From assembly GCA_030141605.1 (NCBI GenBank), contig JAQGDQ010000194.1, forward strand, positions 310,001 to 374,000: a DNA stretch of 64,000 nt, read 5' to 3'. This document shows, piece after piece, positions 334 to 47,700 of this stretch. Position 1 is the first letter of the stretch. Each line of letters begins with the position of its first letter. A program made the position numbers and the translations under genes. The notes under the pieces were generated by a model. The model was not told the origin of the DNA, ran no database searches, and saw only the letters and a list, made by a program, of their open reading frames with translations. Origin of the DNA: Tubiluchus corallicola (lineage: Eukaryota > Animalia > Priapulida).

Positions 334-576
334 CTGTATCACAGTTGAAAGTTGACTCAAACTTGTTTCTGTCTTGTGGATGTCCCAAAAATTTTTTCGT
401 GGTTTCTGGAATTACAAATCCCTGAGAATCAACGCACCATGCAGAGCTGCCATAATGTACCCCATCCATTTGCAATGGTGCATATTCACCAGAAAGCAAA
501 CATTTGGGTCGATAATGTAAACTACGTCCGAAATTATCATCCCGATGGTCACTATTTAATCGAGCAATCAGGCAGG
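334..576 (-). CDS. Exon: thyroglobulin type-1 domain (4-Cys form)
   Basis: ACLIAR...PKCLLSGEYAPLQ...WCVDSQGFVIPET...FNCDT; 243 nt; paralogue of exon 46596-46820. Confidence 0.88.
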
Positions 577-3280: not shown

Positions 3281-3328
<48 letters not shown>

Positions 3329-6300: not shown

Positions 6301-9300
6301 CTCTCTACAGCACGTGATACTAAAAAAGTTTGTTGCAAAGCTACATTATTATGGGCTTAAGGGGATCATAAATTCATGGATGTCATGATACCTTCATGGG
6401 AGAACGCAAGAGGTTCGATACGATAATGTAATTTCAATGAAGCTTCAATAACCCTTGGGTTAACGCAATGTTCAATTTTATAGTCACCTGTATTTTTAAT
6501 ATACATAAATGATATAAAATATTCTATAAAGTATCCAAATGTCTATGAGCAAGAAGAATTAAAAAAGACTGCTAATTTAATATATATCGACTGTAAATTA
6601 CAAAGTTGCTATTTGATTCATAACAAATAACGAAAAACTAAATGTATTAACAAAAAACAAAAATGTATCGGTTTGAAGACTAAACACGTTGATATAAAAA
6701 AAACCCAACTGAAATAGTTTAGGAATTAAAGTTTTGGGGAATCACTCAAAATGAATTCCTGGAATGAAAGCCACACATATATATATGATCACAGGTAAAA
6801 TTTCAAAAATATATGGAATGTCATATATAAGAGTAAAAATGGCTTTAACAAATAACATATAATAACCCTGTACAATTGTTTAATATTACCATACATCACA
6901 TACTGATATACAACTAATACAAATAATCAATGAGTTATCCAAAGAAATATTCATAGTTCACCTGTAACACTAGAAAATGAAAACATCTTTGTTTAATGTG
7001 TTTAAACACTTACAGCATTTTAATTGTTAATGCTTTAATACAAATGAACACTTCTACACAAATATATGAAACTAAATATAATTTCTTTCCAATTTTCTTG
7101 AATAATCCAGTTCAACCTAATAATTGCCGTTCGAGGCTTTGGAATGGCATAAATGATGACCTAAAAACAATTCAGCCAGTACAAACATTTAAAAAAACAA
7201 ATAAAAGAATTATAAAGCAAGAACTTTGAAAAAATCAAATATTTTCTAATATGCTACACTTATGGTAGCAGTCATACCACATTCTAAATACAGAGTATGC
7301 ATAAAAGACATCACTGCATTTTTATAACTGGATGTAAACATCACATAACTTACTGTCTTTCTTCCTACTACTTCCCTTAACATAACCTTATTTATTCCGG
7401 GGGTCCTGCCACCCTGTATTTGAGCACATTTTGGAGACCTTGAATGAGATCTAAATTTTGGTACACAGACTTCCTCAAATGTGAAAAATTCTACCTCAAA
7501 AATATATTTCACCTACATTTACCTAGGTAATTGTCATTGTATTCTATTGTAGTAGTCATATATATTAAAACAAGTTGGTAATATACTGCAATGTGGATGG
7601 CCCATTTACTTAAGCTTATTTTATTTAGTGTCAAGATTATCTACCCTGGAAAGTGTGGGTATTCAAACAAAAGTGATTTCAGACTGTTAAGTTTGCAGGC
7701 CACTATTCATACAAAATTTAATAAGTTTGCATGCTTGATAACTTTTTCCACCAGACACAGCTAACAGGCAAAACCTCTTGGCCACACATGCATTTTACTA
7801 CATTTTAGATTATTTTGTGGTTGCTAGAAGTAATTTTTTCAGGCAAGTTCACTAGTTTAAAACTTATTATGTTACCTCAAACTTGTCATTCATAATTTCA
7901 TTACTACTGTGAAAAGGGGGGGCAGGCCCTTTAGGCCCACACTCTAAATGTAAAAGTGCAGTTACAGTTAGCTAAAAACGATCTATAAAACAGAAATCGA
8001 TAAGAAAATCGACACTATGTAAGTGATACACATAAACATAACTTCAGCATGCAAATTAGCTTACTATTCGGGGATTGCGCAAAACAAACAAGGGGTTGAT
8101 GCGTTTCTTGCTTTACTGCAAAAAAATTATTTAACCGTTTTTGTTCTTAAGAAATTCTGTGGATGCATGTGGGTCAGTGGACCGACAGTACACAAGAGGT
8201 TTTCTTTGTCCCACTGTTACAAACAGATTTTAATTCTTTTAAGCACTCATTATTAAAGTAAATAATTAATGTTAAAGTGCTGTGTGCGAATTTGCTAACA
8301 CCACTGAGAAGTTTGCAGTTCATTCACCTGCTGCAAGCCTGCAAGTCAATGCATAAAACATTGACTTAATTTTATCAGCTAATGACTTGCACAAAGAGAG
8401 AATAATTGATAGCCATTCAGCTGCTAGATTATCACTCAATCTCCTATCGCTTGTAAGGCTGATAATTATTTTAATGTCATCAAGTACATGAGAATGCATA
8501 CAATCAATTATTAATGAAAGTAATTGTGTCATAGATACAAATATAAAATAAAAGGTTGATGTTTACAACATAGGCTATCTAGTTAATCTAATTTGATTGC
8601 TTCTTAAAATCAATTTTAACAAAAATCAAGTTTACCAGTCAAGTAGCCTCCACAATAAGCCGTACACTCCTCTCTCACGTAGAAGTTATTTTCATTGCCA
8701 CCACAGCCACTGTAGGAGAATGACTTACATCTTTTAGCTTTTCTATCCCAGAACCATCTCCGGTGTTTTTCCTTACAATTACCCACATCTCTTGGAAGTT
8801 CGCATATATTACCTATCAAAAGTATATAAAAAAGCCTGATAGACTTTTTTATTAAATATGAATTAGGAGTTGATTAAAATTGGGCACGTTGGGAAGCAAA
8901 TGAAAAGAATGTTGAAAGCTGAAAGTTGAATCTTATAATTAACTTTTCTTAAATTAGCTTTTCTGCCCGTTTCTTTTCAAAATTCTGAAAGAACATTATG
9001 CAGAAAAAAATCTTCTAGTGGCACCTGGTTGAGGTCTTGGATGAAGATTTGTAGTTTTCAGGAAAAAAAAGGAACTGGGCTACACCTGTGGGATCATGTG
9101 GGTTTCTTTTAGTGTGGCCTCCACCAGAATGAGTGTCATGATTGTCATTGTTGCCGTCGTTGTCATCACCATTGGCAGCAACACCAGTGTAGTGTAGTAG
9201 GTATGGTGTAAACAATGTGATGTAGTGATATGGTGTGGTGTAGCTTGGTTAGTGTGGTGCCACCTAACATGGTGTGGGTAATGTAGTGATATGGTGTGGC

Positions 9301-12300
9301 GTGGCGTGGTGCCACCTAACATGGTGTGGGTGATGTAGTGTAGGGACATAGGGTGATGTGGTGCTGAACAGTGGGTGATCTGACATGTGTGGTGGGAGTG
9401 ACACGGTGTGGGAAGTGTGATATGGTGTGGTTTGGTGTGATGTGGTGTGGGTTGTCGTTGTAGGTTTATGAGCAACTGTTTGCAGGGTCTAGCTAGCTTT
9501 ACTATTATTAGAAGTGGGGGGAAATTTATGGTCTGAAATTAATGTTGCGAGTCCCAAAAAAAATAGTCCAAAATAGACCAAATTGTTATGAAAATTTATT
9601 TTATTTACATACGATACGGACTAATATAAAATTAAAATGTGTTTATGACAAAGACATAAACTTAGCTCCTTCGACCTGTAATGACTCATGTATGGGTAAA
9701 GATGAGCTTTATTACCTAAACTTTCAAACCCCCAAATTCGATGAAATTTGGAAAAGAAACGGCTAACATACAAGCGAATAATAAAAGTACAAAATAAATT
9801 CTGTTGTTTTCTGCATTTTCAGTTTTGAAAGCTTTTTGCAAACTAATTGATGAAAATTCTGCTTGGTTCTTGCACAACAGCTCAGTGTAGCAGCGACGTT
9901 GATCTGCCCTGCTGTGTATTAGCTCAGGCTATTCTTAGCATGCGAAGATTAAATTTTTGTTGCACTTGGGTTTGCATTCACAGAATGTAACAGCAACCAG
10001 CGCTAAACAATTGTGTTTCATTTGAGTAATCCCCACTCTGAAAAGCTTATCAGTAATTGAAATGCAATTTCTTATATTTGTGACTGAAAAGTGAAATAAT
10101 CTGAATGGCAGTACCCGGAGAATATAAAGTTAATTTCACTATAATTCGAATGCATTTATTTGTTATCTTATTATGTGAAAAAATGTTGGCATTTTATGAC
10201 TTTTTTAAAATTTGGAATAATTTCACAGTATGATCAGATTAGCAGTTACAGTTATTGAGAAAGCTGAACTGTAACCTGATAGATGCATGTAGTATAGTAA
10301 TTTCTGTACTTTTCACTTGCTAGCAATAAGTATGCTCTCAGATTTTGTCTTTCAAACAGTGCAAAATGCTTGCAAATCAGCAAATTCGGTACCTGGATTA
10401 ACCACCAAGTAAATAACTGTACACTATATCTACTCAGTTACTTACTGCCTTTTTTACCGGTGATACTAGCTGTCACTTCAACAGCCTGTCGCTCACAGGC
10501 GTGCTGATATAATTAGCAGCATGCAGCGCAGGGCAGACTCACCTGCAGCTAGCAATTACAAATTTTGTAATACCTTGGTATATTTGGACAGCTGTCAAAT
10601 TTACAAAGTTAGAGTATACTTTTTGCAAAATCTTGTGCAGAAAACACTGCTCTACAGTTCATGTTAAACTGTTTCATATACAAGCTACCACTTGAACACT
10701 AAAGGGCTTTGAAACGAAAATTCTGTAAAAATTTTAGAGTTTTCACATTAACGACTGTTAACTACTCAACTAAATAAAAAAATCAAAGCGTTTTATTTGC
10801 AGTACTAGAAAGAAAATTTAATTCTTTTTCCAAAAATATACAGTTTTGTACTAATATCTCATGCAGCAGGACATCATGAGCATTTTTGCTGCTGGATGTC
10901 AAAACTAAACAAATATTCGTTCTCGTGAAAGATTTAATATTCTGCACTATGAGCAGACAAAAACTGCAAGTGCTGATAGTGAAAAATCTTTGATGACTTG
11001 ATCTTTGTCTCAAGATCATAGTTTTGTCATTGCTGAAAACTCCATGCAAGATTGTCTAGGAAATCCATTTTATTGCAATCCCATTTTAACAATTCGCCTA
11101 TGTAACATGACCTGACTATAGCCACTTTTTATAAAATTCTGAATACTCATCTACGTTCAACCACCTACCCATATATGCAATAACAAAGCTTCAAGTCCAA
11201 TACTGTAAGAGGTGTTGAGTGACAAAACCATTTGCCCTAATTTTCACATTTTGGCTCCTAACTCAAACTTTCCTAGTTCCTATTTCCAAAAAATACTTAA
11301 TGCACATCTACCCCACATAAGCTAAATACCTGTGAAAAAAATTAATTTAACTCTGTCTCTGAGCAACAGAGGAAAACTGACCAAAAGACCCTTCAACCCA
11401 GTTTCCAGTTGTCTGCAACATTTTACACAATCATGACGAACAATATTTCGAACTTTTTTCTTTGCGACCTCTTGAATTCTAAGGCTACTGGAAGGGTGTA
11501 AAAGTGACACATCACTTTCTTCGTAATGACTTTTTCTTTTCTTGCTGTAAGTCTGAGATTTACTCCATTTTCTTCGTTGGAGTCTCTGTTATCTTATGAT
11601 CATGTTCTCTATAGATAATACAGTGCTTTGTTGTTTTCCTTTGTGCCCGCTCCTTTTGCCTGTACTCTTTGAGTCTCTCTGGACAGCTTTGAGTTTTTCC
11701 CTATAATGTCTTGCCATTTTTTTACTGGACAGTAGTATGTTGATTAAAAAACGTCACCGTATTGTCCTCATTTGAGCAGTACTTTTGCCACTGAGACTTA
11801 TGGAAAATGCCAGGCGGGCAACACAAACTGCAGTTTCATGTAGATCACAATACAATCCACAGCCCAATCTGGAGGTAATCATGTTTTGCGTGTGAAACTA
11901 TTCAAAGCTGCATCTTTACAGTCCACGCCTGGGAACTCCAAGAAAATATTCAATCCCAATGCAAGAACTAATTGCAAGATGACATTCTTTAAAGAAAGAC
12001 TGAGTCTACAAGGCAGCTTAAGAAGGTTCTATGTAGATTTTTTGCCAGCTACTACTGGGCAACAATGGGAAGAATAGGTTGTGCAGCACATTGTCTTGTT
12101 ATTCTATAGGTTGTGCTGTGCATTGTCATTTTCTATTCTATCTTTGATATAGAGCCAGAGGTGTTTCCAATTTAAGATAAAAGTTGGAAAAGTTAATGTT
12201 AAAGTTAAAGCAAAATTTAACATCCATAAAAATTAAACCTACATATTTTTATGCTTCTCAATATTCAGTTTTATTTTTGCATTTGACTTAACTTAGTGTA

Positions 12301-15300
12301 ATAGTTTTACTATTAGTTTAACACTGTTGGCAATTGCTAACACTGCAAATAAAAAAAATCATTCTTTCACTGAATAACATGACTTTTAATGTATTGCCAA
12401 GGTGTAATGTCTCAGTGGAGAAGCTCAAAAATGACACACAATATTTTTATATGTACGTTTAGAGGCTGTTTATATTTAGAGGCTGAAGCTGAGACAGTTG
12501 CTATGATATCAGCTGACTCACAAAGTAAATCAGCTAGCTCGGTTGAGGTTGACTTTTAGCTGAGCTGGCTTAAAGAAAAGTCAGCTAATGCTACGAATTT
12601 TCATTATCTAAATAAAGGATAAATTGTTAGTTAAATGCTAAATTAAGGAGACGAATTTTTTAATTAATTCATGTTGCTTATACACTGAAAAAAGCTTATG
12701 TACAAATTCAAATAATGCATTAGGGCCAATTTTTTGTTATTATAAAAAAGCAAGGGATTCAATGCAAATATAATTATAACAGCCAACTCTTGGCAAGACT
12801 TATCTTAATTACCGACGAATCAATACCAAAACACCAAATTATCCCATACATGTGAGTAACGCTGTTTGTATATTTAATTTTGAAGTCACCAGCTTTCTCT
12901 TTCAAAAATTTCCAAAATTTAGTATCTCTGACAGCACACACACAACCTGACCTCGAGCCCGCAATGCCTTTGCCATATTTCAACCTGTGAATTGCAGTGT
13001 CATGTGATTCACAAGAGCGAAAATCTTTGCAGCTGGCAAAAATGTCGGCTAGCTCAACTTCCATCACTGAGCAGCTGGTGGCAATAAAATTTCAGATGGA
13101 AATTAACTGGCTGGAGCTCAGCTGAATCAGTGCAGCGCTGGCTCTAGTAATATTATGACAAATAGTGACTTACTGGCAACTCCACAACTAGTGGTCAACT
13201 CTGTAACCAGGGTTTGGTTGCAGAAATGGCGGCTCTGGAGTGGACATTTTGTATTAAATTAGTTATTAGAACTTATTAAAACTAAGGGACTAGTAAAACT
13301 CAGTTCACTTTCTGATTAACAAGCTTGTCTTTAAGCAAAGCATCGATTCCTCAGATGTGTTAGTAAATCTAATAATAAACATTCTGACAGGCATAAACAG
13401 TGGTTTCGGAGTTGACATATTAAAAATACTTAAGGCGTATTAAGTGCACGAAAATGAATAAGCCAAAAAAGTATAACAACAACAAATTTTACTAACTCAA
13501 CAAAATAATTATTCAAAGAATAATTATCCAACAATTATTTAATCACTGTAAAATGCTTAAAGCGCTGATTATTTGTAAGACTGCACAATTTGCTTTCAGG
13601 TTGCAGAGTTGATATAGATAAAATTAAAACAAGTGACACAAAAAATTAGCTGAAATCAAGAAAACCAGCAACGAATTTCTGAAATCTGCCTTAAGATTGA
13701 TAATGTACAATGTCTTTGCTAAAAAACAGACTTGGAGCTAAAACACATCTTATAATTTTCGTTAGTGTAAATTGGGAAAGCTAAAAAGTGACAAGGTTAA
13801 TCCTGTGCAATTATAACATATACTGGTAATTTTTTCGAAAAATATTTAACCCAACGTGCTAAAAAGTTAAGTGCATGAATTGATTGGTTTATTGGTATTG
13901 GTATTTGTTTGCTTTTATTACATTTTTATAAGATGGTGGCATCAAAAAATATTGAGAGAATGACTAAAATACAGAAAATGATTAAGACAAGGAAACTGTC
14001 ATAAATACATGAACCCATGACCAGACTAGTGGAATACTGCATAGCATTCTAAGAATAATTAGTGAATGCTAAAGGTCATCAATACTCATGTAATTGCTTT
14101 GACTATTTTAAAAAAACAGTCGAAATATTGTATCAGAATGTGTTCATTGAACTTCAGCTAAATAACCAATGGTGACGCTGAGCTTTAAATTAAACATTTT
14201 CTGGGCTGTCATTCTCCCTGTTCTTTAATAATGTTTCTTTTTATCTAGATTCAAAAGTCATAGGGCATGTTACAAAGACACTTTATTAAAAAGCATATGC
14301 AATGTAGGATGTCTAGCACAGAAATTTAAAAGCTTATCACCAAAAATTTTTTAAAATAACAAAGTATTCTAATAAAATAATATTTACGTAGACAATTCTC
14401 GTTGCCTGCTTTTTTCAAACCTTGAACCTTTGTTGCTTCACATTCTAATTTGCAAAGGTTGTCGTACTGTTTTCCGTCAGTTCCACACACATGATCAGAT
14501 CTTCTCTCGCAGATACACACTTTTGAGTCATCAAACTGTACCATACGACGCACTAAACAAAATACACAAAGACAGATAAAAATTGGTACTTGGCACCTCT
14601 CACGGTACTCCTACTTACAGGTAGCTAACTGAACTGGTTGTATTGCTCACACTGTTTCAAATGTCAGGTCTCTAAAGAATGCTGCTAAAAATTCTTGGCC
14701 TACAATTAGATACCTATATTTTATCGAAGCATATAAACTTTTAATACCATGATTCTCACAAAAGAAGTAGTTACATTTAGATTCAAAACTCAAGATTGTT
14801 TATTTCAAAAAATTAGCTATACAGTCCACTAACATTTTACTATATAATTGATCCAGCAGTAGGTTTAACATCAATGAGTCAAATATGTACAAACTACCTT
14901 GTTGTGTAACAAAAATGCACTATGCTTACACCAATCTCTCTAACTTTATGTCATGGTGAGACATGTGTCATGAGTTACAAGTGACTGCTAGCAGTTGAAT
15001 GCCTACTAGTCTTAGAGTGAAAGCAAGTCCTAGATGACTATATATATATATATACATACACTAGTATATAGTACAGTACACTACAAATAGAGAGAGATAC
15101 GTATGTATATATAGCTTGTTTATGTATGTACATACAAGTTTATATATATACACACATAAACTGTAGATGTTATTCATTTAGTTCTTCCGTTTTAACATTT
15201 TTCTTTAACGGAAGACCGGACGATTGTTTAGACTCTTTTTAATTTGCTGTCCGAATCCAAAATATATTTTCTTGTTTATAAAAGTTGTTCCTTTTATAAA

Positions 15301-29700: not shown

Positions 29701-32700
29701 AACACTTTCCTTGGTTTCAGAAGATGTGTCAATGGCACCAATAATATTCAAGGAAAGTGGCATTCAGTTTTGAAATTTGATAAAAATAATGTAGAGCTTT
29801 TTAGTTTTCTATCAGATATAAAAGCTTGAGCAGAATTCAAGGGTAGGTAAAGTGCTTTGACTGTGGCAACCAAGGCCAAAAACCTACATAATGATCAAAA
29901 TTACTGGTATTATTTTAATAGAAGTAACTAAATAAACTTCACATAACTCAACTGTGGATTGAAATAGGAAAATATCTTAGCTGTATAGATCTATGAACAT
30001 GCATGAAAACACAGCAGTCAAAACTATGGGGAATTTAATCATTGATTCAACACACTCCAGAAGTAACTCAATTCATTCAGACTGCGGCGCTCGCATTCAG
30101 ATAGCTATTTGCTTAAAATCAACAATGGGCTCTCACCAATAAAATGGTCGGAAGTTGACGAATCTGACACAGAAACAGAAACTGACAAATGTAATATTGG
30201 TACCCTAACTGAAATCAAAGCAGAAGCCAAAAAATTCATAAACAAGGCCAAAGACAGAAAAAGACTTGAAATGGTAATAAAAATTTTGCACTGTTGGCAT
30301 CAAAATAGACCAGATCTCAGAAAATAATGTTAATAAACAGAAAACTAATCACAATAGAGAAAACAGTTAATCAAACAAACCAAGCAAATTAGCCACAAGT
30401 CCCATTGTGCAATTAGCGAGCCAGTTTCTCACAGCTCTCTATTGTAAAAATAGAGCATTGTAGCAAGCCAGACTATCCGTGTGGGCCTTTAAGATGCTAG
30501 GCAAGACTCGCACGCGTCTCAGGTACAACACGACTCTCTGCACGTGCAGACTTCGCGTATGCGCTCATCGTGTACCAATCCGGCTGCTGTCTGATCAGTC
30601 TTATGCGCAGATCTACTCCAGGCAGCAGAAAGCGGGGTTGACTAAAAAAGTCCACAAAAAGTTTGGTGACGTACTGGCACGTGGCTCCATCTCATAGCAG
30701 AACCGACCTTTCTCTCAGCGACTGGTTTTGAATCGGTTGGCCGATCTGCGGGTTGGCAGGATCCGGGTGCCAACCCGCCTGTCAGGTTCGAATTGCATCA
30801 GTATTTGCAGATAGACCCTGTAGCCGTAGTATCTGCTTGTTTCCCAACATCACCTTGCAATCTGAAAACAGGCAAATTTACCACAAGCGGAAGTGCGTTC
30901 TCTCCCACCCCGGAAACCGGCTCTCCATTGGCGGTCGACATGCGCATGTTCAAGACCAGTAGAGTGTCGTTGCAGTTGAGATACGAGATATTCGTCTGAA
31001 CTTCTCATAATAAGAAACTCGATGGGACTGGTCACATTCTCTGTATACATGTTGAAGGGTTTAAAATGCACATATTGTATTTCGGAAATGTCCACTTGGG
31101 CGGACATCTCGATAAACAAATCCAGCACGCTTTTTGTCGCTAGAGTTTCCATGGTCTCACAAAAAAGTGTCAAAAGTCTTCTTCTTCTCACTCTGTTTCT
31201 TCTTGTGATCCTTTTTCTACAGGCACCCGTCTGTTTTCTCTGTCCTCCTTAAGGCGGGCTATCCTAGTTTTGCTCCGTTTTCGCTTTTTCACACTCGACA
31301 CACTTTTGCTTATCTCCTGCGCCAGAGCATCTTTCAAATTTCTGGCAGCTCACTTGGTGGCAGTCTTGGCCGCATCTTTTGCGGCACACAGAGCCAGAAA
31401 TTCCAAGAGTCCAAATAGGCCACAAGCATATGCCAGCAATGCCACACCTCACTGACGTTTGCTGTCATATGTGTAACAGGGATCGCTGCTAGCCACCATC
31501 CTCGCACTTCCACACACCGCACCACACGGAGTATAGTCACATTTGCCTATTAGATACAGTGCTGGTCTAAAGTGAAGATTCAAGAGCATGTGTCCCCAGT
31601 GGAAATCCACTTTTCTGCCCACGTAGCCTTCTGGACCCTTCAGACGACTCCTGTTGACTTTGTGATAGTAGATGCGCCGAAATTTGTGCGTCACGGTGTC
31701 TCCATGCTCTCTCTCGATGGTGGCAGCGTGCAGGAGAGGTACCGAAGTGTGACCATGGGCAAACGTCCAATGCAATCCAGATATATGTACAGGGTCTGTC
31801 GACCTTGATCGACTTTGAAGGGATGGGAAGATTCGTGTTCGCCTCAAGTCGATTGGTTTGTGTGTGCAAAAACACAGTGTGGAAAGTTCTCCCTCGACTG
31901 ACCATTGAGAGTGTCTGCAGATAGGATGAAAACTCACGTCGAAAAATTTTCTGGGCAACTATTCGCGCAAGTAATGCATCAACTGTTTGGCGTCGCTGTA
32001 ATGTCCATTGGGTAGCTCTATGTGCTTGTAACCTTTGGAGAGTGCACAAAAATCACTTGCCATGGGTAGCCTGACAGATTGTCCGTGAGTCAAGAAGGCC
32101 ACGGAAGCGTTACTCTCGTAGTTGCAAATAGAGCAAGGATAGACTATTTCCGTTCTCAGTAATAGACCATCTTCTCAGTCTCCTTTCAGCAACAGTGAGG
32201 CAAGCAACTGCACTCGAAAGCTGCTGGGTCTGTTTTCTGGATGCTGGTTGGGCGAGGCATTAGAAGCCAGCAACACGTAAAAACTGGCGGGCATCACACC
32301 GTCACGAAATGTTCCACGCTTATCCAGCTGGCAGACTATTGGATAATCCAGCCATTTCGCGAAGAAACGCTTATGTTTTCCTTTACCCTTCGTTTTGAGA
32401 ACTATTTCCACCCGGTAAACATTCCGACTTTACGACTTTCAGCAATCCGTCTTTCAGAATATGCCATGCATCGGCTCGCCCCTGTGACGCGTTATGTGAT
32501 AGGTGAGTGGCCAGGCTGCAGAACTGTCTTCGGATGCCTGCTTGACGATGTTCTTCGGTTCAGTTGGGCAGGTAGGATTTTTCTAAATGATCCTTGACTT
32601 TGGAAATACGTACCAAATCTCCCACCTGCAATTTGTTGCTCGCACCTTTTTTCTCCCCCTTCACTTGCCGCACAATTTTCTCCACAAGAGCATTTCCTTT

Positions 32701-35700
32701 CACGAATTCACCTCGAGCGGAGCCGTGCCTATGTTCCGGTGCGAGGCGGCATCGTAACCGTGTACTAGATCTTGGAGAAAATCTATCCAGCTAGGCATCT
32801 TGGTCGCCTGTAGGTGGTTTTCTTGGTAAAAAATGCATGTTTTATTCTTTCAAGAGTTTTTGCACGTATTTTTAAATTATCTACCCTTGTCTGTGTATAA
32901 CTTGAGCTCTTCAGTCTCGAATGTAAAGCTCGTGCAATTTCCCTTCCGCCTTTATTCTTCAACGCTCTCGCCCAGGCATAGTAACTGAAACAATCCACCA
33001 CTGTTACCATGTGCTTGTAGCCGTCGTTGTATTTGGAGAGAGCGTCCATGATCACCAAACCGGCTTGAAATTGGTAATCAATTCCCCGCATCAAGGCCTG
33101 GCGAGTAGGGTATCCTCGGAGTCTGGCACCCCTGCGAAGCGCGTAAGCGGGCTGGGCACTCAACCATTCGTGCACTCGGCACGCGGAATGGCATCGAGCA
33201 CCCGCAGTTCCGAAGCAAGCCGAATGATGCAACTCGTAGTAAATCTTGACTAGAGTTCTGTCGTCTTCAACCACACAAATTCCCTCGCCAGAGGAGACGA
33301 TTGACGCTGTTGCTTTCGCATGGTTTGTTTATGAGAACATTCCGGAGTGGGCGCAGCTTCAGTACCAGATCATATGCAATGGTGTGCCAGCATGCCGGGG
33401 GTGGCTAGACCCAACTTGCAAATAATAATAATAATAATAATATGATGATGCAATAACCCCTCCAAATAATGGAACTAACCCTAACTCTAGCGCAACCCTC
33501 CAAATAATGAAACTTCACTAACCCCCTCCAAATAATGCTCAACCCAAATCCTAACCCTAGCTGCTAACCCTAAATCTAACCCTAGTCTACCCGTCCAAAT
33601 AATGGAACTCCCCTAACTCCCTCCAAGTAATCGTCAACCCTATCCCTAACCCTAAACCTAACCATAATTCTAACCCTAACTCACCCCTCCAAATAATGTA
33701 ACTTCCCTAACCCTCCAAATAATGGTCAACCCTAATCCTAGCTGTTAATCCTAATCCTAGCTCCAACCTTAGCTGCTAACCCTAACCCTAATTTACTGAT
33801 GAGATGAGAGGTATCTCTCGTGTTATTGCTGCTGTTGCCAGTTCTATCCGTCTTTGCTGTCTTACCCAGCTGAGTCATGGGTACACTTATTTCTTTCAGA
33901 TATTCGGAAAAGTCAGACCATTCTCGTGGTGGCGCCATCTTTTCGCTGGTTATGGCATAATTTATCAAATCCACTAGGTGTGACCTGTCACCACATGTCC
34001 CGCACGCACCAGACGACGCACTTCGTCTCAACGAGCGGGATAAGCCTTCAACAAGGAGAGCATTTTTTCGCCTCTGTTCTTGTACTTGACGGGTAATGCT
34101 TAGATTATGTGAGCGTCTTTGAGTCGGTAAAGTCATCTTCCCCCATGGCTGACAGATGTTTCAAGTCTTTGATCTCTTGCATCATTTCGCTTCTCAACTT
34201 ATTTTCCACACCGGGTGGTAAACTCTGTGCAGACAATTCTCCCTTTTTCTGCTGAATTTCTACCTGGCGTGTCTAGACTGGCACGTGCACGTTTCAGCCT
34301 TTTATACTCGGCCAACGGTACCAACACCATCTGAGAATACATTTTCTATTTTTTGTTTTTATTGCGAAAGGTTTTCATGGTTCTAGCCACAGATGCAGCA
34401 GCTGAAGTGGCACCAAATATACCTGCCAAAATGGGTATGATTGGAAATATTCCACCATTTTGCACCAGCACGCGTCTTCTGGCCTGCAATGTGGAGCCGA
34501 GTTGAGCTAATCTTCTGAGTACATTGTAATGACCTTTCAACACCTTTATCTGTTTTGGTTTCAACTTCACATTTCTGTTTAGTATTTTGAGAGCACATTC
34601 TACTAAAAAAATTCACCGCATCCCCAATGGCCCATTTTAACAAATCTCCCTTCTGATAGGAACTGGCATGAGCCAACGGTTTGTATCGTCTAATGCGACC
34701 CGTTTTCATTACTACTGTTAATGCCGGTGTGTTGTTGTTGTTGATGATGATGATGATGCCACTGATGGTTCAGTGGCTCACCCGTCATGTTTGCTTATCT
34801 CATTTTTGCGGAGGGAAGACCAGCTGCTGTGCTTCATGTGGCAATATGGTACTTCTCATGCGAATGCTGTCGTCAGTTTCCTGTCGCAAATCGAAAAGCA
34901 CGTAAGAAAATGGCACCGCCGAGGCACTCTCGAATGCATCCACAAAAGATTTGGATTTCCCGGATACATTTGCCTACCCAACATTTCCACCGGCATCTTG
35001 GCACTCGGATTTTAGAATAAAACGAAGTAGTGCGTATTTAGACTGCGAGTTCTCGATTCTTTACTCTGCTGAAAAAGCGTCTCTAGTATTTTGCGTGATG
35101 AAAACCACAAAACAGAGCTTGTGGTATGCAAGCTTTGTGAACATGTCCGTCATCCATTTTGAGGAGGCCAGTGCGGACATCATGTCGTCCTCCACCACTA
35201 AATCTCCTGCTCGTAATTCCACATTTATGTTGTTTCTGTACTCCACTTGTTGTAATTCTGCGTCGGATGGCGGACTTTGCGATATCCACAACACCGATAT
35301 CTGGGGTTTGGTATCGAACAACCCGCTCCAATAGAGGATAAGATTTTTCACAAAAGTGCTTTTCCTGGCACGAGTGGCTCCGGCCACCAACATGGTGCTA
35401 CCAAATTTCAGCCTGGCATTGAAAGTTTGCTCTGTCATAGCTAAGTTTTTATAGTACTACAATCCATCAACGTGTTTATGACAACAAAATGGAAGCATGC
35501 ATACCCGTACAAACATATTCTACTACAAACTGTGTGATGATTTGCTTGCACAAACATATTCTATCACAAAATGTATGCAGAAACATATTCTGCTGGCAAC
35601 TCAAACACATGATGAGAGCGTGAGTGGTCTATTTTTTAACGCTGATCTACCAACAGGTTGGTGGGTGCTAATCTGCTAGGTGACCATATATTGGGGTTTT

Positions 35701-38700
35701 TGGAGCCGGCGCCCAGATTTGCTTTGTGATGACACGTCTCTCTAGATTGAGAAAAGGAGTGAAGAAGCTATAGAAAATGATACAGTGGTTTTTCCTCTCT
35801 CTCTGCAGCAGTCAGTCAGTGCATTCATAGAGGACCAATTTCAGGTGAGTGTACATTTCGTTTTCTCATTCTAGTACTTACTTAAAATTTACTCTAATTA
35901 AGAAGAGCAGGAATTTTTTGACTACTTATTTTTAGCAAGCATCAGAGTTGGAGAAAAATGGCTCAAAATTCATGTGGATAAAAGAGAAGATGAGGGTGTA
36001 GCCGACTTGTTTTCAACACCTCCTACACCCCCCACAAACACACATTACGCCCACTGATCCTAAAAAACTGAAAAAATTGCATGATGTAAAAGTCTTTAAC
36101 GTTTCCTTTGCGGGATTTCAAACAACCCCAAAATCCACCTGTGCCCTCAAAACCACAGCAACAAAAACAATAACATACAACAATGACTGCAGGTGCCAGC
36201 AAGCGGAAGCAAACGTAAAAATCCACGTAAGATTGGCAGCAGCAGCAGCAATAGAGTGGTGCAGAAATACACCTTGTGAGAAAGTCAAGTCATTGCTCTT
36301 TGAAAACAAACACAAGAATATCGTCATAGTCAGCAAACTGATCACTACAGACAAGTGAATTGAACATAGTTCTTCCCACAGACTGCGCCAAAAATTTGAT
36401 AATTCGCAAAATAGAAACCGGCATATACCACAACTGCAGCTTCAAACCTCCTCACCTTTGGCGCCCAGTTCCCTACTACAAGCGATCCACTTACAAATAT
36501 CAGAGTAGACACATGGCGCCTGGTGGGAGGAAATGTTGGAGTATACGGAATTAGCATTCTACGACAAACCACCAGAAACAGGATCACCTATGTCAAGGGG
36601 CTCGAGATGTACAGTTTCGTCAAAAATCATCTATCCAAAGATCTACAAAGTGAACGAGTGCCATCAGCTATACAATGGCAGAGCGATCCGGGCAGCCGAA
36701 ATGATGGCCAACTATCTGCTAACTCTATGACTAGAACAGTCAACATCATCGCCACGGCTTCATTCGCACAACACTTTGCTATGTAGTTGCTGCAAGCTAG
36801 ATTAGGTGGAAAACACTACAGAAACAAAAGCTAGAATACACCATCCTCGAACTCACCAAATACGGCGGACTGACACTCACCACACCTGCAGTAGTTCGAA
36901 CCGTCACTAGCAAAGCTAAAATTTCCTGCAGCCTGAACCTTCCTACACTATATCAGGAGCTCATAAAGTTACCACAATGTTTTAATGAAATGTTTTACGA
37001 AGTAAAACTTTTTCCCAAATTAACTTGTAAACGTGATCAAATCATGCTAACTGTTTTTTACACTGCAAGTGTAATAATAATGGGGAACAGACTTGGAAGA
37101 TTTCCTGCATGTTTTTCTTAAATTTAATAATTTCGTATATGAGAAAAATATTGTTTGCTTGCCTGCTTAACAATTATCATGTGTAATTGAAGAATTATTT
37201 TGTATTAGATAAACGATTATAGATATGCATAGGCAAATGTGTAGAATTTTAATAATTATTTTGTATTTCATAAACGATTATAGACATGCAAAGCATTCCT
37301 AGATAGGACAAAACTTAATTAAATAGCACGTGTTGATGAATAAACAAGGAGGTCTATCGTACATGTTAACTGTTAAAAACAATTACACTAGATTATTATA
37401 CAATACTTCTGTACGTGCTATTAAACAAAAGTAAAGACTTTCACCTAATATGGTGATAAATATTAGAATATTTACCATATGCTGCCAACACCTGCATCAA
37501 CCGCACATTTACGTGAATGAAAGTCACGTGATGCTAATAGAATGCATCCTGTCAGTAGTGTAATTATGTATGAACTCGCTCTGATAAACAACCCTATTAT
37601 GACAAGATAGGGTTACAAATTAAGGTTAAAGTGAAATACTTCTGTTCGCGCTATTAATGGAAGTAAAAACTTTCACTTAATACAGAAACAAACATCCACT
37701 AACAGCAGGCTGCATAGGATTATGGATATCCATAAAATAAGACCAAAAATCCATAAAATAAAATTTGAAGAATCCATAAGATAAGAAATGCATAAAATAA
37801 AAAATATTTTTTTGTGATTTTTTGTGCAAAGTAACGAGTTGTAAGCATTGGCAACACTGAAAACAAACGTTAGAAGGAGAGAAAGAGAAAGAAAACAAAC
37901 CAACAAAAGCGCATTTCCGGATTTGCTATTTTACATTGTTTTTTCTCATTGTCTTTTTGTTATCAAGATGGTGAAGTTTCAACCAAAGCATGACCTGGAG
38001 TTCGGTCTGAAAATAACTGAGACCTAGCCACCAGAGACGTACTCTCTGTAGACTAATAAAATTAGAACTAAGCCTGCGTGTTTAAAAACACGTTTCAAGC
38101 ACTCCTGTTTTTACTTTTTAATTGATTTCCCGCTGGGCATCTCGTTCCAGATATAGTCTATTTCTTATTTTATTGATATCCATAAAATAAAATTTCAAAA
38201 ATCCATAAAATAAGCTATTTTATTTATTTTATACATATCAATAATCTTATGCACCCTGACTAACAGTGTTTAAGCTAAACCCAATTAAAGAAAACTTTCA
38301 TCTCAACAAGTTAGGGTTAAAGCAACCATGTATGCGCAAATCAACACCACATTTCGCAATAAGTTAGGGTTAGAGCTAGGGTTAATGGTAGAACAAACAC
38401 GCATGCACAAACCTACAACAGTTACACCACATTTCGCAACAAGTTAGAGTTAGTGCTATCATGCATGCACAACAAACCTATAACACTTATACCACATTTA
38501 TCACATGTTAACAGTCAAAGGTGGCATGGACTAGCGGGTAAGGGGGAGAACTCGCACGCAACCAATTAGTGGTTCGAAACCCACTTAAGGAAAACTTTCA
38601 TCTCATTAACTTAGGATTAGTGTTAGAAGCTAGGGGCCCACTCAGTATCGTAACATTGACACTACTAATATGTATAATGTATATACATATAATTAATAAA

Positions 38701-41700
38701 GAGTTATAATGATAATAACGATAATAATTAGCTAAATAAAAGCCAACCATGAAAAAGAATCAATTCTGTTAAAATTCCAATGTTGTGGCCAGACTTCAAA
38801 AATTTGAAAAAGGTGGGTTGGTCCACATGACATATCTGGCAGGTTCTATTGTTGGGCTCAAGCTCAATGGTAATCATTGATAACTGCACAAGCACAGAGA
38901 GCAGTGGCAGCTACATATATATATATCCAAGAAATCTTGTGTGTTCAGCACAACATGAAAATGTTTTAGAAGAAATGTTACCTATATATCACATGTAATA
39001 TAATGTGATATGTACATGACGTACCAAAATCTATAAAAACAGTTTGAATTTTTTGTTTATATGTGCCAAATTCGTAATGCTATTTAAAACAAAAACCTAC
39101 TAAAATATAGTTACTACTGTTTTTGTTAATTTAGTGTCTAGCAACCTGACAATGAAATCGCCATCTACACCAGCGAACCTCAAGCAGAGCAATCAGTGCC
39201 ATCTGTGCGTCTGTCTGCCAAATAAAAATGAATTCGTTGATCTTGAAAACCCACGTCTAGACACAAATCATAATCCTATCTACAGTAGAAAGTGCAATAT
39301 GGCCAAGAGTAGCCTTTTGACAGCCATCTTGAAATCTTAATTGGGGTGATAAATTATAACAATACTTTTGAGCAACAGATGTGTATTCCTGATATTGAAA
39401 ACCTAAATTTAGACAACAAAAATCACTGTCCTAAATAGCTAAGGTAAGAGCTTTACAAGCTAGAGGAAACTATGTTGTCGGCCGTCATAAATATGGCAGT
39501 CATATTGAAATTTTCAATTGGCAGCATATCCAAATTAATCTCGATGGGTTTCAGCACAATGCAAAATTTCGTGCTTTTAAAAAGAAGCAAGCAATTTTTC
39601 AGTAAACTGATCATATTTATATCCAGAGTTTGGCATAGGCTTTGGTCCAGGTAAAAAGCAAATTTCACGTGACTTACACACTAACACTAACATTTGGAGG
39701 GCTCACTAGTTGGAGAAACCTACGTTTACATATTGTTTTACCCCTTAGTTTCGGATATGTGATTATTGCCATTAACGTCTAAGTAGTGAAACTTTAGTCA
39801 GTGATTTTGCAATCTACCAGTACATGCCCTTTTGGAAAAACATTGGTACATTATATTACCTCAGGAAGTACCAACAACTGGTCTGACTCATTGATTACTA
39901 GGTTATTTCACCGTAAAAAAATTATTTTTCAGAACAAAACAAAATTCAAATGAATCTACTTTATCGAAGATAAACAGGAGTTACCTATCTTCATACATAG
40001 CAAAAGCTCAGGACAAAAGAGTTGTGTACATTCAACTTCTGCTGTCGTACAAACTTCACCTTTATTCTCGCAGATAGCATAAAAATCCTATTTTAAAATA
40101 AAAGAAGACATTTTAGCAAAAGTACATAAGATGCCTGCTGAAAAGCACTAATATACCATATAACCATAGTGCAGAGCTAAAAGATTTATTTTTGTTCAAA
40201 AATTACAATCTTCTGCAATAATATTGCAATTTGTTTAAAAAAAACTTCTGCATATAAAAGTATTAAACTGCAAATTATTAGAATCCAGGTCCTGATCGAT
40301 TTTCGGTAGGCGATCACCTGTTTCGATATAATTGCTTGGTGCTTATGACAAACCGCGCTATTTATACGATACGATGGTTGATTAGTCCCCGAGTTTCACA
40401 TCTGGTGGAAAAAGTTATCAAATAATATTATTAATAGAATATAAAAGTCCTATAAGTTTACCATTTGTTTTTATAAAAAACAAAAAATTGATATTTTACC
40501 CAATTTTTGATGCATTTATTATAAAACCTGATTTAACCTGAATAAATAATTAAAATATGGCAAGCAGTTTAGTAATTTTGTTTCGAGATGTGTGTTCGTG
40601 CTGAAATAACTAAGTAATAGTTTTTCATAATAACAATTATTATTGTTAATATAGTAGTCGTCTTCATTATCATCTGCATTATTATTATTAATGACTAAAC
40701 TGCATCACAGTCAGATTTTAATTCCCACAGCCGCCATGTTAACATTTTTTTTATTTACCTATCTTTGAAATTTTCAAACCTAATTTTCAATGTTATGCCT
40801 CCAGACAATTTTTCAAGCCTTGCGCGTTGTATGGCACAGCAGATTGTTTACGTTAAATTGTAGTTGGCGGATGCACTGATTATCAAGCTGAATAAACGGA
40901 TACCCTAATAGGGTCAACAAATATTTCCGAAAAAAAATTGTCATTTGCTATAAAAACCTCCGAAAAATACAGATATAAACATGAAGAAAATACTATAACC
41001 AGATACTTCTGTAATACTTTCAGCACTATAACTTTACCAAAAATTTTGTAAAATGTACCCTAGCGTATAATTTATGAGACAGTGTGTGCCTAAACGAATC
41101 ACACAATGATCATATAACTCACTGCACACACCATACATGATATCTTGCACCTTAACAGACATAGCAACCACGAGAAAAGCTCCTTATCTTTTTTGTTTTT
41201 AAGTAGCTGAATACACATAATTTTTTCTTTGTGCTGATGTTATACAAAAATTATTCATTTAAGTCTTGCAAACTTACTAGACTACTAAACGTATCCATAA
41301 TATACACAAGTAGTGGAGATTGTGGTATAATGTGTCCTTTAGGGACCCCATAGGAAGATGCACGACCCCCAGGGATTTTTTTAAGTTCTTTTCACCCCTC
41401 CAACTTGTTAAGTAAGAGTAATCCTAACACTAAAGCGCACTGAAATGGTAATTCTAATACCCGTAACCCTAAACCCTAACCCCAGTCTGTCAAGATGGAG
41501 TTTAACATTGAGTTAGTTAGTGTTATTATGGCACAAATACTGTAGGCAGATAATTGCACGCACACGTGTGAATTTAAAGACGTGACAATTATGTTTTGAG
41601 AAATGTAGTAGAGTGAAAGAAAAAAGTGTTTAACTACGGATCTTAATTAATAATTAATCAATTAGAAATGAATGAATCTGTTTGACTCGTTGGAACGTGA

Positions 41701-44700
41701 ATGCAAGTAAATTTCTTCGGCTCATTGAAATGTGAATATAAGTAATGTGGCTCTCAAAGTAATTGTCTCATCTTAATTATAGAAACACAAATGTCAAATT
41801 AGTATTTTTAATTTAACTCCTCGCCCGCTTGGGGTTTGCTGTAATACACAAAACAGATCGCTGCTAGCCACCATCCTCCCATTTTGGATGCACTGCACAA
41901 GGCATTATCACTTTTGCTTATTAGCTATCGGTAATGCTGCAGTTGATGTTGTTGTTGTTGCCGGCGGTGGTGGTGGTGCTGCCAATGATGGTTCAGTGGC
42001 TCACCTAGCACAATTTTGGGTAAGGAAGACCAGCTGCAGCTCTTCGTATGGAAATATAGCTATATATTGCTGTCGTCTGATTCCTGTTGTAAATCGAGAA
42101 ACACGTAATAAAGTTGCGATGGGGTGGAACACTCGAACACATCCATGAAAGATTTCGATTTACCAGGATACATTTGCTTGCCCAACACTTCTACCTGCAT
42201 CTTGTCGTGGAGATTTTGTGAATAGCACCAAGTTGTGGGAGTTTAGACTGTGAGTTCCCAATTCTTTACTTTGTTGAAAAAGATTTTGTGTTATAAAAAC
42301 CATGAAAAAGGGATTGTGGAGTGCAAGCTTTGTGAGCAGGTCCACCACCACTAAATCTCAGGCCCATATTTCCACATTTATGTCGTTGCTTCTTTTCTGT
42401 AATTTTTCTTCGTCAGCTGGCAGCAATTGCGATATCCGCAACACCCTTCGGTGATTGGTATCAAACAGCATGCTCCGACAGAGGACCAGATTTTTCACAA
42501 AAGTGTTTTTCCCGTCATGACTAGGTCCAGCCACCAATATGGTGCTACCAAATTTCAGTCTGGCATCAAAAGTTAGCTCTGTCATAATTAACCTGCTAAT
42601 CGATCAATTTTAAATTTTAATTAAATCATAACCTTGCAAACACACATTCCTTTGCAAATTGTTTTAGGGCTAGACTACCAATGTGTTTCTGGAATGCATG
42701 CGTGTACAAACATCTTCTACTTGTACATACATGTTTTTCTAGAAAATGCATGCGCAAACACATTCTGCTAGAAAATGCATGTACAAGCACGTTCTAATGG
42801 CAGCTCGAACACGTATAAACACGCACAACCACGTGATTCATGTCATGAGAGGATTGGCTGGTCCATTTTTAGCAGTGGTCTCTCATTGGTCAGTAATAAT
42901 CTGTTAGGTGTCCATTTTGGGGCGAGTGGGCACATTTGCTTTGCATACACCATTGATGACACGTCTCTCTGGATTGAGAAAATGAGTGAAGCCATGAAAA
43001 ATGATACAGTTGTTTTTCCTCTCTTGCAAGATTTCTCTGCATCAGTCAGCACATCCAAAGAGGAACAATTTCAGGTGAGAGTACATTTTTTTGTTTTGTA
43101 ATGATTTGTTTCACATTTGAGTAGTTACTAAAAACTTTCAGTAATTAAAGGGAGGAGCGCATTAAAAAAAAATTTGTCCATTTATTTACAGGTTCATCTT
43201 CGCTGACGTTTTAAATATGATACCATTAACGAGACACTCCCTAGAGGCAAGAGCATATTCTTAACAGTGATGGAATATGGCAGACTTGTCATTAAGCGGG
43301 AGAAAATACTGACATTTTTGAGCAATGGAAGCAGCTTTAGCAAACTAGAAGTATAGTTATCTGGTAGAATGAGTTTGCTGGACCTAGACTCGGTTCCACT
43401 CTTCATCACGGGCAACAACTCATTTCCCTTGAGTTTCAAAGCCATTTGTATGCTCTGCGAAATGCCAAAGCTTCACAAGATTACGCTAAAACTAAAACCT
43501 GCACACTTCTGGGTCAAAGAGAGAATAAAAGTCACACCGGGCATCATATTTCTGTCCGGACAAGTGTACGTGTTTCATCAGATATTGGGCGTCTATACCC
43601 GACATTGCCATTAGACGAGGCGTAGAAAGGTGGGTCAGAAGACCGTCATTCCAACCAAACCCGGCATCAACCTCCCATCTACGAAAAACTGATAACCTCG
43701 GGAGCGACTCCAGATACCACGTATGCTGGCTGTTGCCATGGCACAAACTGAGATTCCTCTGCATCGAGGCAGTCAAAGATGGCAAGATAATTGACGGACA
43801 ATACTCTATCCTCAATTGAGGAGTATGCATGAAATTGGAAGTGTGGACAAGAGGAAGACAGAGCCAAAAATTTGATAATTCACGAAACAGAAAGAGGATT
43901 ATATCACAAGTACACCTTGTGTAACAGCCTCACCCCAGGCACCGAGTTCCCCATTACAAGCGATCCACTTACAACTATCAGAGCAAACATACACGGCACC
44001 TGATGGGAGGAGGGAATGCTGGACTACGCATGGGACAGTTGGACAGTGTTTTACGTCAAACCACCAGTGACAGGATCACCTGTGTCAAGGGTGTGAAGAT
44101 GAACACTTTCGTCAAAAATCATCTGCCCAAAAATCGCATAATCATGCGCATGCGTCATGCAAACTGACCAAGCACCACCAGCCATATGAAGGAAGAGCAA
44201 TGGACGAGGCAGAGCGATCAGGGTAGCCAAAACGGTGGCCAATTATCTACGAATTCTACGATCCGAGCAGCCAACATCGTCGTCACGGCATTCGTGCAGA
44301 CCGTAGATCTGAATGTGCTGCAACCAGCTTGGGTGCACTCGGAGACCACAAATGGTCTGCTGAAGAAGAAGAAATATCTCTGATGATTTTTGCCTCCAGA
44401 TTTGTGGTGGTCAATGGTTTTTCGGAGAAACAAGAGCTAGAAAATTCTCTCCTCGAACTACTCAAACACCTGGGACTGACACTCGCTGCACCTGTGGTAG
44501 TTCGAACCATCACCACTAGAGCAAAAAAATTCCCTGCAGACGGAATCTACTTACACTGTATCGAGAACTCACAAAGTTACCACACTTTTTTCATGAAGTG
44601 TTTTATAAAGCAGAACTTTTTCCCAAATTAACTTGTAAACATGATCAAATCACGGTAACTGTTTTTCACACTGGAAGCTTAATGATGAATGGGGGAACAG

Positions 44701-47700
44701 ACTTGGAAGATTTCCTGCATGTTATTCTCAAGTTTAAAGATTTGGTACACGAGAAAAATAATGTTTGCTTGCTTACTTAACGACTGTTACCCACATTTTT
44801 TGTACTCGAACAATAAATATTATATAACTGCGATTTTTGACGTTTCAAGTCATTTATTAGATACTAATACAAAAACATTAAATCAATCAAAGTTAAAACA
44901 TCACATTTAATCAAAAAAGATCATTGAAGTTGTTTTCTGTGCAAATGTACAGTAGGGAATGTGCGGCTCGCTGGTGTACTTATACCACATTTAACACCAA
45001 CAAACCAAACATGTTCTCGGTATCCCAGTGGCTAAGGTGCAAGACTCGTACGCAACAGATTGTTCAAATCTAGCTTAAAGAAATTTTTTTATCTCAACAA
45101 ACTAGGGTTAGGGTTAGGGTTACTACTTTACAAGTTGGAGGGGTGAAAAGAAAAAAGAACTTAAAAAAATAAATAATTCCCCGGTGGGTACGCTAAACCA
45201 GGCAGTATTCTGCAATCCCAACTACTTACACACATTATGACAACAGCAACAGAAACAAAACTAATCTAAAATAACTGATGAAACAGATGGGGGGGGGGGT
45301 GATCACAGCAGTTATGATGGCAGCAATGGCAATAATAACAATAGAAATGGTTGTGATGTAGTAACAACCATACTATAATAACATTGCAGTACCTATAGCA
45401 GTAGCAACTTTTCATTTTATTAAAATATTCTTGCGCGCCAGCTGGAATACAAATTGCATGGCAGTTTTAACAAAATTAATATTGCAAAAGCTTTTCTGAT
45501 AATTAAAAAATTGATGAAAACTTAATTAACTGCGGGGAAGCCCAACTATTGCTGACATCACGAACTAACTTAATTTTGAACATCAAAAATATTCCACGAG
45601 CATGTAGCACGTGTTTGTGAAAGCGAAACTGAAGGTATGTTTTAAGATAAAAATCAAATTTACCGTATAAGCTGTCGAACGCGCATAGTTCGCCAAAATT
45701 AACACATCTGAACTGACAGGTACAGTATATGTTTTTGTACAATGCATTTCCGATATGTAGGCGCTAGTACCCGTCTAACTAGCGAACGGCAAAATGCATG
45801 TAACAGCGAAGAACTAGTAACACGAACGTATAATTGTGTTTGCGTTCTTTCACGTAAGTCATTTTTGAAAAAATAGTGCGTTCCCTTTCAATATTTTAAA
45901 GAATAGATATTTATGACCTTCAGTTTAAGACTGGCTCCGGTTCTTTAACAAGAGCTTCAACTGCTACCAGAAAAAATAGAAAATATTACAAAAAAATAAC
46001 AACTGTGATCTCCACAAAAAATACCTCACATGGAGAAGGTTTACATCTGCAAGTTGGACATCCAGTTGATCCATCAGCAACATAACCATGTCTACATTTG
46101 CGTTGACAATTTTTTGGATCAAAATCACAATTCAGTGTAGCTATGAACAAATTAAAATCATAAGCTCATAAAGCTGCAATTATTGTTATTAGTATTCGTT
46201 ACCTCATTTGTGAAACTTGCATAAATAGAAATGTTTTCTTGTTCAATGGCCTAGAATTAACAATGCTCTGTCAATCGAATCTTACGCATAATTAACAAAC
46301 CCAATTAATGACATTTGTAATGCGAGGCTGCAAATGACATACAGGATGTTTTACTGTACATAATGAACGATTTGACTTCTCTACAAATCAATTACCGATA
46401 CAGTTAATATTTTTTGTACAGATGAGTTCATATTGCAATTCTGCAACTAATGTTTTTTTGTACAGACGACTTCATACTTTGAAGGTCCTTGCAACAAATG
46501 TTTTTGGCATAATATATGAGGTATGGGCCTTAATGAAAAGTGCTTCATATACTGAACCATAAAATAATTATTGCTTCAGAAACTTTGGCCTGTACCTGTA
46601 TCACATTTAAGAGGAACACCACCTTGGTCACCTTCCATACCATATTCTTTCAGAGTTCCTGGAATTTGATATCCTAGTGCATCAACGCAAAAGATACTCA
46701 ACCAATGTTCATTTATGTGCACTTGACGTGAGTTGTATTCACCAGAATCCAAGCACCAAGGAAGGTTATGATATTCATTTTTATAAACCATTCCGTCATT
46801 TGCAAGATGAACATGACAAGCTAAAGTAAAACAGAAAGACTTGTGAAACTTCAACAAAGAGAGATTATTCGTTAACTGTAAATGTGGTCTCAAAATAAGC
46901 AATGATAATCTTTTACATTAATCATTAAGAAATCCAGAAATCTTCAAAGCGGGCAACATACTACAGTTATGAGAGCCATATTGCAACTCAACTTTTATAT
47001 TGTTTTATATGTCGTTCCAGTTCAAAAATAAAAAAGGTCGTTTTACAAATTTATATTTAATGGAAAACCGCAATCAGTATAATAACATTCATTTGACAAG
47101 TAGATCTATTTTATGTGAAGTTAAAATACAAAATTAATTACCACAAATCAGCCTAATTAATATCTTTATAATTTGCTTATTTTGACATTATTAATTTGCA
47201 GTTCTGAACTTTTAGTACTGAACACCAGATCCAGCTATAAATGAATCTAGTTCGGCAATTTGCTAATTTGCACAATATTCTATTAAATTAACAAAACTGA
47301 CATTGGTTAAGCTAAAGTGTGCTATAAGCGAAATTACCGTATATAAAGATCCAAAATAATACAAAAATGATGAATTTACTTAGATCATACGTCCCTAATA
47401 AAGCAAATTCACCATATATCAATGTACCTAAATCTAGCACTATCATAATGTGAAAACTACTTTTATCGTTACTAAAGTAAAGAAGCCCGTTAACATCTAC
47501 CAACCAACTGGTTTGCCCAGGTAAAAACAGATACACACGCGTGAACAATCGTGACCAACAAGATACTAAGGAAAATTTCATGCTGGCAAGATATTTAAAA
47601 TCAAATCTTGAAACTCATTTCCCTATCACAAAAGCAAAACAACAACAAAAAATAGTGCCTAAACTTTGTGTCAGAACATTAATATAAATAAATAGAAATA

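Follow-up and report, generated by a model that had tools for sequence, protein, structure and literature searches.

Two broken, very divergent TBP-family genes in a Polinton-type element remnant of the priapulid Tubiluchus corallicola

Two TBP-like pseudogenes and an open relative

The stretch of DNA analysed here, which we call the window, comprises 64,000 nucleotides of the priapulid Tubiluchus corallicola (contig JAQGDQ010000194.1, positions 310,001 to 374,000). It contains the remains of a Polinton/adintovirus-type element, and within these lie two decayed genes, copies A and B, that resemble the TATA-box-binding protein (TBP). An open relative of both, P0003, was found in sequence databases and is used throughout for comparison. 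The two copies are located as follows:

44258..44780, plus strand: TBP-like pseudogene, copy B (Pfam TBP match, PDB sequence matches, tblastn of P0003)
36727..37170, plus strand: TBP-like pseudogene, copy A (81% DNA identity to copy B over 356 nt, Pfam TBP E 0.0055, tblastn of P0003)

A preliminary description of this DNA had placed both copies correctly and presented each as an open reading frame (ORF) of about 170 codons at the end of a plus-strand cassette. The size and the place hold, but neither copy is open. Copy B, 523 nt or about 172–174 codons long, is split into three frame pieces by breaks near 44370–44380 and near 44527, and it has no start codon at the position homologous to that of copy A (36727). 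In copy A the first lobe is shorter by about 78 nt, and further breaks occur. The TBP motifs quoted in that description are all present in the sequence, with the correction that LMIFAS, described for both copies, occurs in copy B only, as it falls within the stretch missing from copy A. The DNA itself is genuine. A contig from sequencing run X1, possibly the source of the assembly, spans 40483–44694 with no other letter and one gap, and a contig from another study (X3) equals the window without difference over 43309–44456, which includes the first break of copy B. At least this break is therefore present in the DNA. We gave no weight to the depth of the element contig above that of its flanks, as depth is not copy number, nor to a deep X3 contig that connects the TBP-like stretch with the upstream ORF and covers 36 letters on its short side. 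A and B are both dead pseudogenes; the locus is inert and no product is made.

Membership in the TBP family was assessed with several profiles. Against Pfam PF00352, the last piece of copy B (44520–44777) scores 25.0 bits (E 1.8e-5), above the cut-off of 22.9, which bears out the family assignment first proposed; a piece of copy A (36801–37118) reaches 17 bits (E 0.0055), below that cut-off. A TBP match was obtained for four of the eight pieces scanned and none for the other four. The N-terminal and middle pieces of copy B have no Pfam match when scanned singly. In a PDB sequence search with the last piece of copy B, archaeal TBPs are the top four of seven matches (best E 0.0038), and the TBP family accounts for 29 of 30 matches in an Atlas search. 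With an independent profile built from 22 archaeal and viral TBPs, three of the TBP-like pieces take ranks 1 to 3 when the window is cut into 2116 six-frame segments (E 0.00066, 0.029 and 0.068). When the breaks are bridged with X, copy B scores 21.8 bits on this profile, covering positions 52–172, and copy A scores 11.0 bits; the maxima of the shuffled controls are 7.9 and 5.3 bits, respectively (804 and 801 of 1000 shuffles scored). By sequence, copies A and B are broken and very divergent genes of the TBP family, with homology spanning both repeats.

A profile of the window pieces was compared with 1.84 billion (1.84e9) representatives and returned two matches. The only real one is P0003 (E 6e-29), an open protein of 145 amino acids that forms a single-member cluster and comes from a contig of 1855 bases; the other, P0004, was rejected as a repeat-rich bacterial protein. 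Its identity to the four window pieces is 57, 49, 49 and 34%, with 49–57% for the longer ones, and by tblastn it finds copy B (E 5e-21 and 1e-14) and copy A (E 4e-24). On Pfam TBP it scores 56.9 bits (E 1.9e-15) in two stretches, all 18 of its PDB sequence matches are TBP entries, and profile-profile comparison gives TBP a probability of 96.6% (E 5e-10 over 120 columns). It is colinear with residues 106–223 of yeast TBP; its start falls after the first helix and strand, and the sequence may be incomplete. Its structure was predicted with a pLDDT of 93 from an alignment that included 52 ordinary TBPs. In a Foldseek search with this model, all 38 rows with E<=0.001 among the matches listed (of 41) are TBP or TBP-containing, at 19–26% identity, and giant-virus TBPs head the matches in a library of viral structures. 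Homologous-protein searches restricted to near lengths returned nothing for the copy A piece, and P0003 alone when started either from P0003 or from an alignment, A3. A further candidate, L001, was discarded because its match lies out of frame within a bacterial gene. Near P0003, rank 2 in the ESM Atlas is a cluster of 169-residue TBP-domain proteins with 110 members, labelled eukaryotic and mostly Chordata, which could contain Polinton TBPs filed as host genes.

We placed the sequences in a tree of 30 rows, 27 of them archaeal and viral TBPs picked from about 130 loci after exclusion of partial ones and near-copies; the tree holds no animal TBP or TRF. Copies A and B and P0003 form a group with 100/100 support on a very long stem, separate from the 27 others. 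P0003 is only 24% identical to human TBP (1cdw_A) and 21–26% identical to eukaryotic TBP chains. Since the cores of animal TBPs are nearly invariant, this value excludes a recent retrocopy of host TBP, the origin that the preliminary description had named as its own counter-explanation. Several viral contigs of 40–166 kb (L003, L004, L008, L010–L012 and L018) carry related archaeal-type TBPs, and the five of them included in the tree form one supported branch. On another viral contig (L013:1326-3404), a eukaryote-like TBP adjoins a gene that we take, from its motifs, to encode a major capsid protein of the large-DNA-virus type.

The Polinton remnant around the genes

The neighbours of the TBP-like genes were compared with L143, a near-complete, intact Polinton (IMG/VR contig, 1–12321) that was found by a scan for the ATPase motif. 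Its Pfam content includes a Pox_A32/Adeno_IVa2 ATPase, an integrase with rve and Chromo domains, and a C5/C48 protease. The following features were located in the window:

43856..44260, plus strand: broken upstream ORF, copy B; 70–76% DNA identity to its counterpart in A
36380..36731, plus strand: broken upstream ORF, copy A, from the sequence and its alignment to B; its stop codon overlaps the TBP-like start codon
35938..36027, plus strand: possible Polinton cysteine protease remnant, weak; L143 protease, tblastn E 0.12 and phmmer E 0.048, alone not significant
34827..35438, minus strand: packaging ATPase remnant, copy A; L143 ATPase, tblastn E 2e-13
42072..42585, minus strand: packaging ATPase remnant, copy B; L143 ATPase, tblastn E 1e-13
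34349..34710, minus strand: small basic core-protein-like gene with a QxGG-hydrophobic end, presumably 'pX-like'; L143:6282-6635, E 2e-4
32340..33325, minus strand: rve integrase remnant; L143 integrase, tblastn E 3e-20; NCBIfam IS481-type, E 0.0019
31566..32348, minus strand: minor capsid (penton) remnant; L143:8044-8862 (273 amino acids), tblastn E 4e-5; named from position and size in L143
30563..31164, minus strand: major capsid (hexon) remnant, cut short; L143:9198-10616 (473 amino acids), tblastn E 0.003 and 0.007, phmmer E 0.0018; named from position and size in L143
41386..41414: left arm of an inverted repeat around copy B, 29 nt, 97% complementary
45124..45152: corresponding right arm, 29 nt

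In copy A, the ATPase, core protein, integrase, penton and hexon genes follow one another on one strand in the same order as in L143. On these matches, we conclude that the locus is the remnant of a Polinton/adintovirus-type element, as had been proposed from the letters alone. In both copies the TBP-like gene ends the plus-strand cassette, after the same upstream ORF, and the cassette stands back to back with the ATPase; the weak protease match sits at its start. The overlap between the stop codon of the upstream ORF and the TBP-like start codon in copy A suggests coupling, and the product of the upstream ORF is a candidate partner of the TBP-like protein. Scans of the upstream ORF pieces against Pfam, PHROG and NCBIfam gave no match of note.

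No counterpart of the 1164-residue, PolB-sized gene of L143 is found in the window. With both copies truncated, loss of the polymerase gene (pPolB) is likely. No Polinton family rises above the Pfam cut-off among 137 ORF pieces of the window, PHROGs yielded nothing useful on the window pieces, and the penton and hexon genes are without a Pfam match both as window remnants and in L143. In IMG/VR, scans with the TBP pieces, P0003, the ATPase, the hexon and the integrase turned up no close relative, and the phage records contain none either.

The limits of the element are less defined. No target-site duplication is seen in the alignment of the element flanks, and the 29-nt inverted pair around copy B is only a candidate terminal repeat; similar CCCTAA-rich DNA occurs inside copy A. 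There, between two Polinton genes, a telomere-like, CCCTAA-rich unit of 95 nt is repeated in tandem 2.8 times (33481–33740). DNA of this kind is also found at the ends of A and B (38344–38630, 41440–41496 and 45100–45122), and the unit may represent a dispersed repeat in its own right.

Flanking the Polinton remnants on either side, between 323 and 56804 on the minus strand, are exon-like pieces with domains of the thyroglobulin-1, WAP, Kunitz (two), lustrin-Cys and antistasin types, a set that fits an invertebrate host. These are probably parts of one or more large multi-domain protease-inhibitor genes, with the remnants either intronic or between two copies. L143 itself has, at 11376–11897 on the minus strand, a gene weakly resembling the PC4/p15 coactivator (Pfam E 0.0034, below the cut-off).

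Retained and altered residues and the proposed function

The determinants of TBP function comprise four phenylalanines, two asparagines, one proline and two acidic residues that contact TFIIB (PMC12529657, in the part available). Residues 106–223 are numbered here after yeast TBP from its alignment with P0003. For N69 and F99 we use what we take to be the yeast numbers, and both were placed on the copies by alignment. F116, L189, F190, P191 and F207 are retained in copy B and in P0003, so that copy B has three of the four intercalating phenylalanines and the canonical set of four is incomplete. Of the two asparagines, N69 in the first repeat is kept in A and B, and N159 in the second is a threonine in A, B and P0003, leaving this set incomplete as well. 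The alignment thus agrees with the residue pattern noted at the outset for copy B: three phenylalanines and the repeat-1 asparagine kept, the repeat-2 asparagine lost. T124 is changed to asparagine and T215 to asparagine or glycine, and K120 and K211 are replaced. P0003 has both acidic stirrup residues, E186 and E188; copies A and B have a single one each. At the five basic helix-2 positions (K133, R137, K138, R141 and K145) no residue is retained, and the net charge is +5 versus +14 in a eukaryote-like viral TBP. At about 50% sequence identity to the window copies, P0003 still shares their TBP-defining motifs, and retention at this distance points to past constraint.

Several properties of an intact product can be predicted from these residues. 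Binding to the DNA minor groove is predicted because F116, L189, F190, P191 and F207 are kept in copy B and P0003. Contact with TFIIB is plausible, given E186 and E188 in P0003 and one of the two in each window copy. The changes at N159, T124 and T215 make it probable that the preferred DNA sequence is not TATAAA. TFIIA, TAF1, Mot1 and Brf1 bind the helix-2 face of TBP; with all five basic residues gone from this face, the protein would probably escape these host factors.

We suggest that in the active element the gene encoded a private viral promoter-binding factor, a reading to which we assign a probability of about 0.5. A bare TBP core would bind the minor groove and bend AT-rich viral DNA of non-canonical sequence, would recruit TFIIB and RNA polymerase II of the host, and would evade host factors that bind helix 2. 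By analogy with the TBPs of herpesviruses and giant viruses, its likeliest targets would be the opposite-strand genes for packaging and the capsid.

A number of observations weigh against this proposal. The fourth phenylalanine, F99, is unrecognisable: copy B is about 8–9 residues short at that place, copy A has lost the stretch, and P0003 starts downstream of it. The predicted structure of P0003 leans toward the TBP fold through the 52 TBPs in its alignment, and with five sequences the pLDDT is 38. The TBP profile finds no TBP in L143; among 186 ORFs of five loci with the ATPase motif, of which L143 is the one Polinton, it has no match. Between A and B, the ratio of nonsynonymous to synonymous change (dN/dS) is 0.74 over 124 gap-free codons, with 26, 20 and 26 differences at codon positions 1, 2 and 3 and an excess of silent change that is not significant (p 0.19). 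This check, which had been proposed with the first description, thus gave no signal of selection, and most of the divergence between the copies is compatible with neutral decay. For the same reason, A and B may stem from a single old duplication and count as one witness. The promoter motif search found none above chance in the window. TATAAAA occurs 15 nt upstream of the ATPase start in copy A, as one of 13 matches in the window, where the chance mean is 7.6 and at least 13 matches arose in 4 of 100 shuffles; it is missing before the ATPase of copy B. A distance of 15 nt from the ATG is also closer than the canonical spacing of a TATA box. The earlier suggestion that the protein redirected host Pol II/III, or acted as a decoy, is not shown by these data.

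A more specific form of the private-factor proposal can be offered only tentatively. An animal Polinton lineage may have had its own late-gene programme, run by a bare, rewired TBP on a box other than TATA, with the TFIIB handle kept and TFIID and regulators shed. If true, this would be the smallest known viral route to hijacked Pol II initiation, and would differ from the herpesvirus route, in which the TFIIB contact is dropped.

Other roles for the protein are unlikely to different degrees. As a decoy or repressor, it would bind TFIIB or TATA-like DNA without starting transcription and so damp host genes or early genes of the element. The degenerate first lobe without F99 and with a short first stirrup, the loss of the basic helix-2 face with its lower net charge, and the acidic TFIIB residues of P0003 would all fit such a role. 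We nevertheless think it unlikely, as three phenylalanines, the proline and both sheets are retained, as they are in viral TBPs that activate transcription (PMC12529657, in the part available). It is rather more doubtful that the fold was reused outside transcription, for DNA bending or for packaging or replication, for instance at the terminal repeats. Changes in the base-reading residues and partner surfaces, together with the promoter search, speak for such reuse, but P0003 keeps the YE-ELFP stirrup and its acidic residues, which in TBP bind TFIIB (same source).

We also considered that the gene was passenger cargo, an old captured copy of host TBP or TRF without lasting use. The lack of a selection signal between A and B is in line with this, as is the finding of a single open relative, and the tree, having no animal TBP or TRF2, leaves room for it. 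This origin is nonetheless improbable: the fold residues are kept although identity to human TBP is 24%, P0003 is open across 145 codons at about 50% identity, and the group of A, B and P0003 stands fully supported on its long stem. Finally, that the TBP match is due to chance, or that a recent host retrocopy landed in the element, could be argued from the weak scores of single pieces, and is contradicted by the Pfam, PDB, shuffle and profile-profile results and by 21–26% identity to eukaryotic TBP chains, so that we consider it very improbable.

Comparison with known systems

With cellular and archaeal TBPs (PF00352; 1ytb, 1cdw, 1mp9), the proteins encoded here share the two-repeat saddle, the equivalents of F116, F190, P191, F207 and N69, and the YE-ELFP stirrup. 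They differ in their low identity (19–26%), in having no N-terminal extension and no recognisable F99, and in the replacement of N159, T124, T215, K120, K211 and the basic residues of helix 2.

Among viral proteins, the best matches in the structure library are TBPs of nucleocytoplasmic large DNA viruses (Moumouvirus M1PH61, a Heterosigma virus and B263R of an abalone asfa-like virus), the top ones at 14–20% identity. These viruses encode their own RNA polymerase, whereas Polintons do not. The TBP mimics of herpesviruses, of which KSHV ORF24 is an example, resemble the present proteins in combining a viral TBP fold with base-facing residues that are altered and more polar, and ORF24 is a model for a private late-promoter factor (PMC12529657, in the part available). 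From the same portion of that article, ORF24 has extra domains and partners and no acidic TFIIB residues; here, a bare core of about 170 residues is found, and these residues are kept in P0003. The likeness to ORF24 is at the level of the fold.

The closest parallel in context is already in print. Starrett et al. 2021 (PMC8502044; bioRxiv 10.1101/697771, each seen in part) give a TBP label in the legend to their Fig. 5, for viruses with an adintovirus-like PolB, so that the novelty suggested in the preliminary description was overrated. Their MELD viruses are alike in having a TBP-like gene in a Polinton/adintovirus-type genome. In the portion of the paper available, theirs is a legend entry in a section on non-animal datasets, whereas the present gene is broken and lies in an animal genome. 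The part of their supplement that was searched gave no TBP match, and a text find in the available part of a 2026 preprint on Polinton-like viruses met no mention of TBP or TATA. The literature covered, which included few subscription papers, yielded no study of how a Polinton TBP functions. The published label on such a virus thus came without a test, and the present locus is a further divergent lineage. It widens the range of the trait by this one lineage; a pseudogene pair cannot settle function.

Comparing the locus with L143 shows the ATPase, core protein, integrase, penton and hexon in the same order and orientation. L143 has its PolB-sized gene (1164 amino acids) before the ATPase and no TBP, and a divergent cassette on the plus strand, with TBP at its end, occupies that place here. 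A TBP owned by a Polinton would give a direct, testable answer to how the transcription of capsid genes is timed and driven, and would carry viral TBP mimicry beyond large viruses to elements of 15–20 kb.

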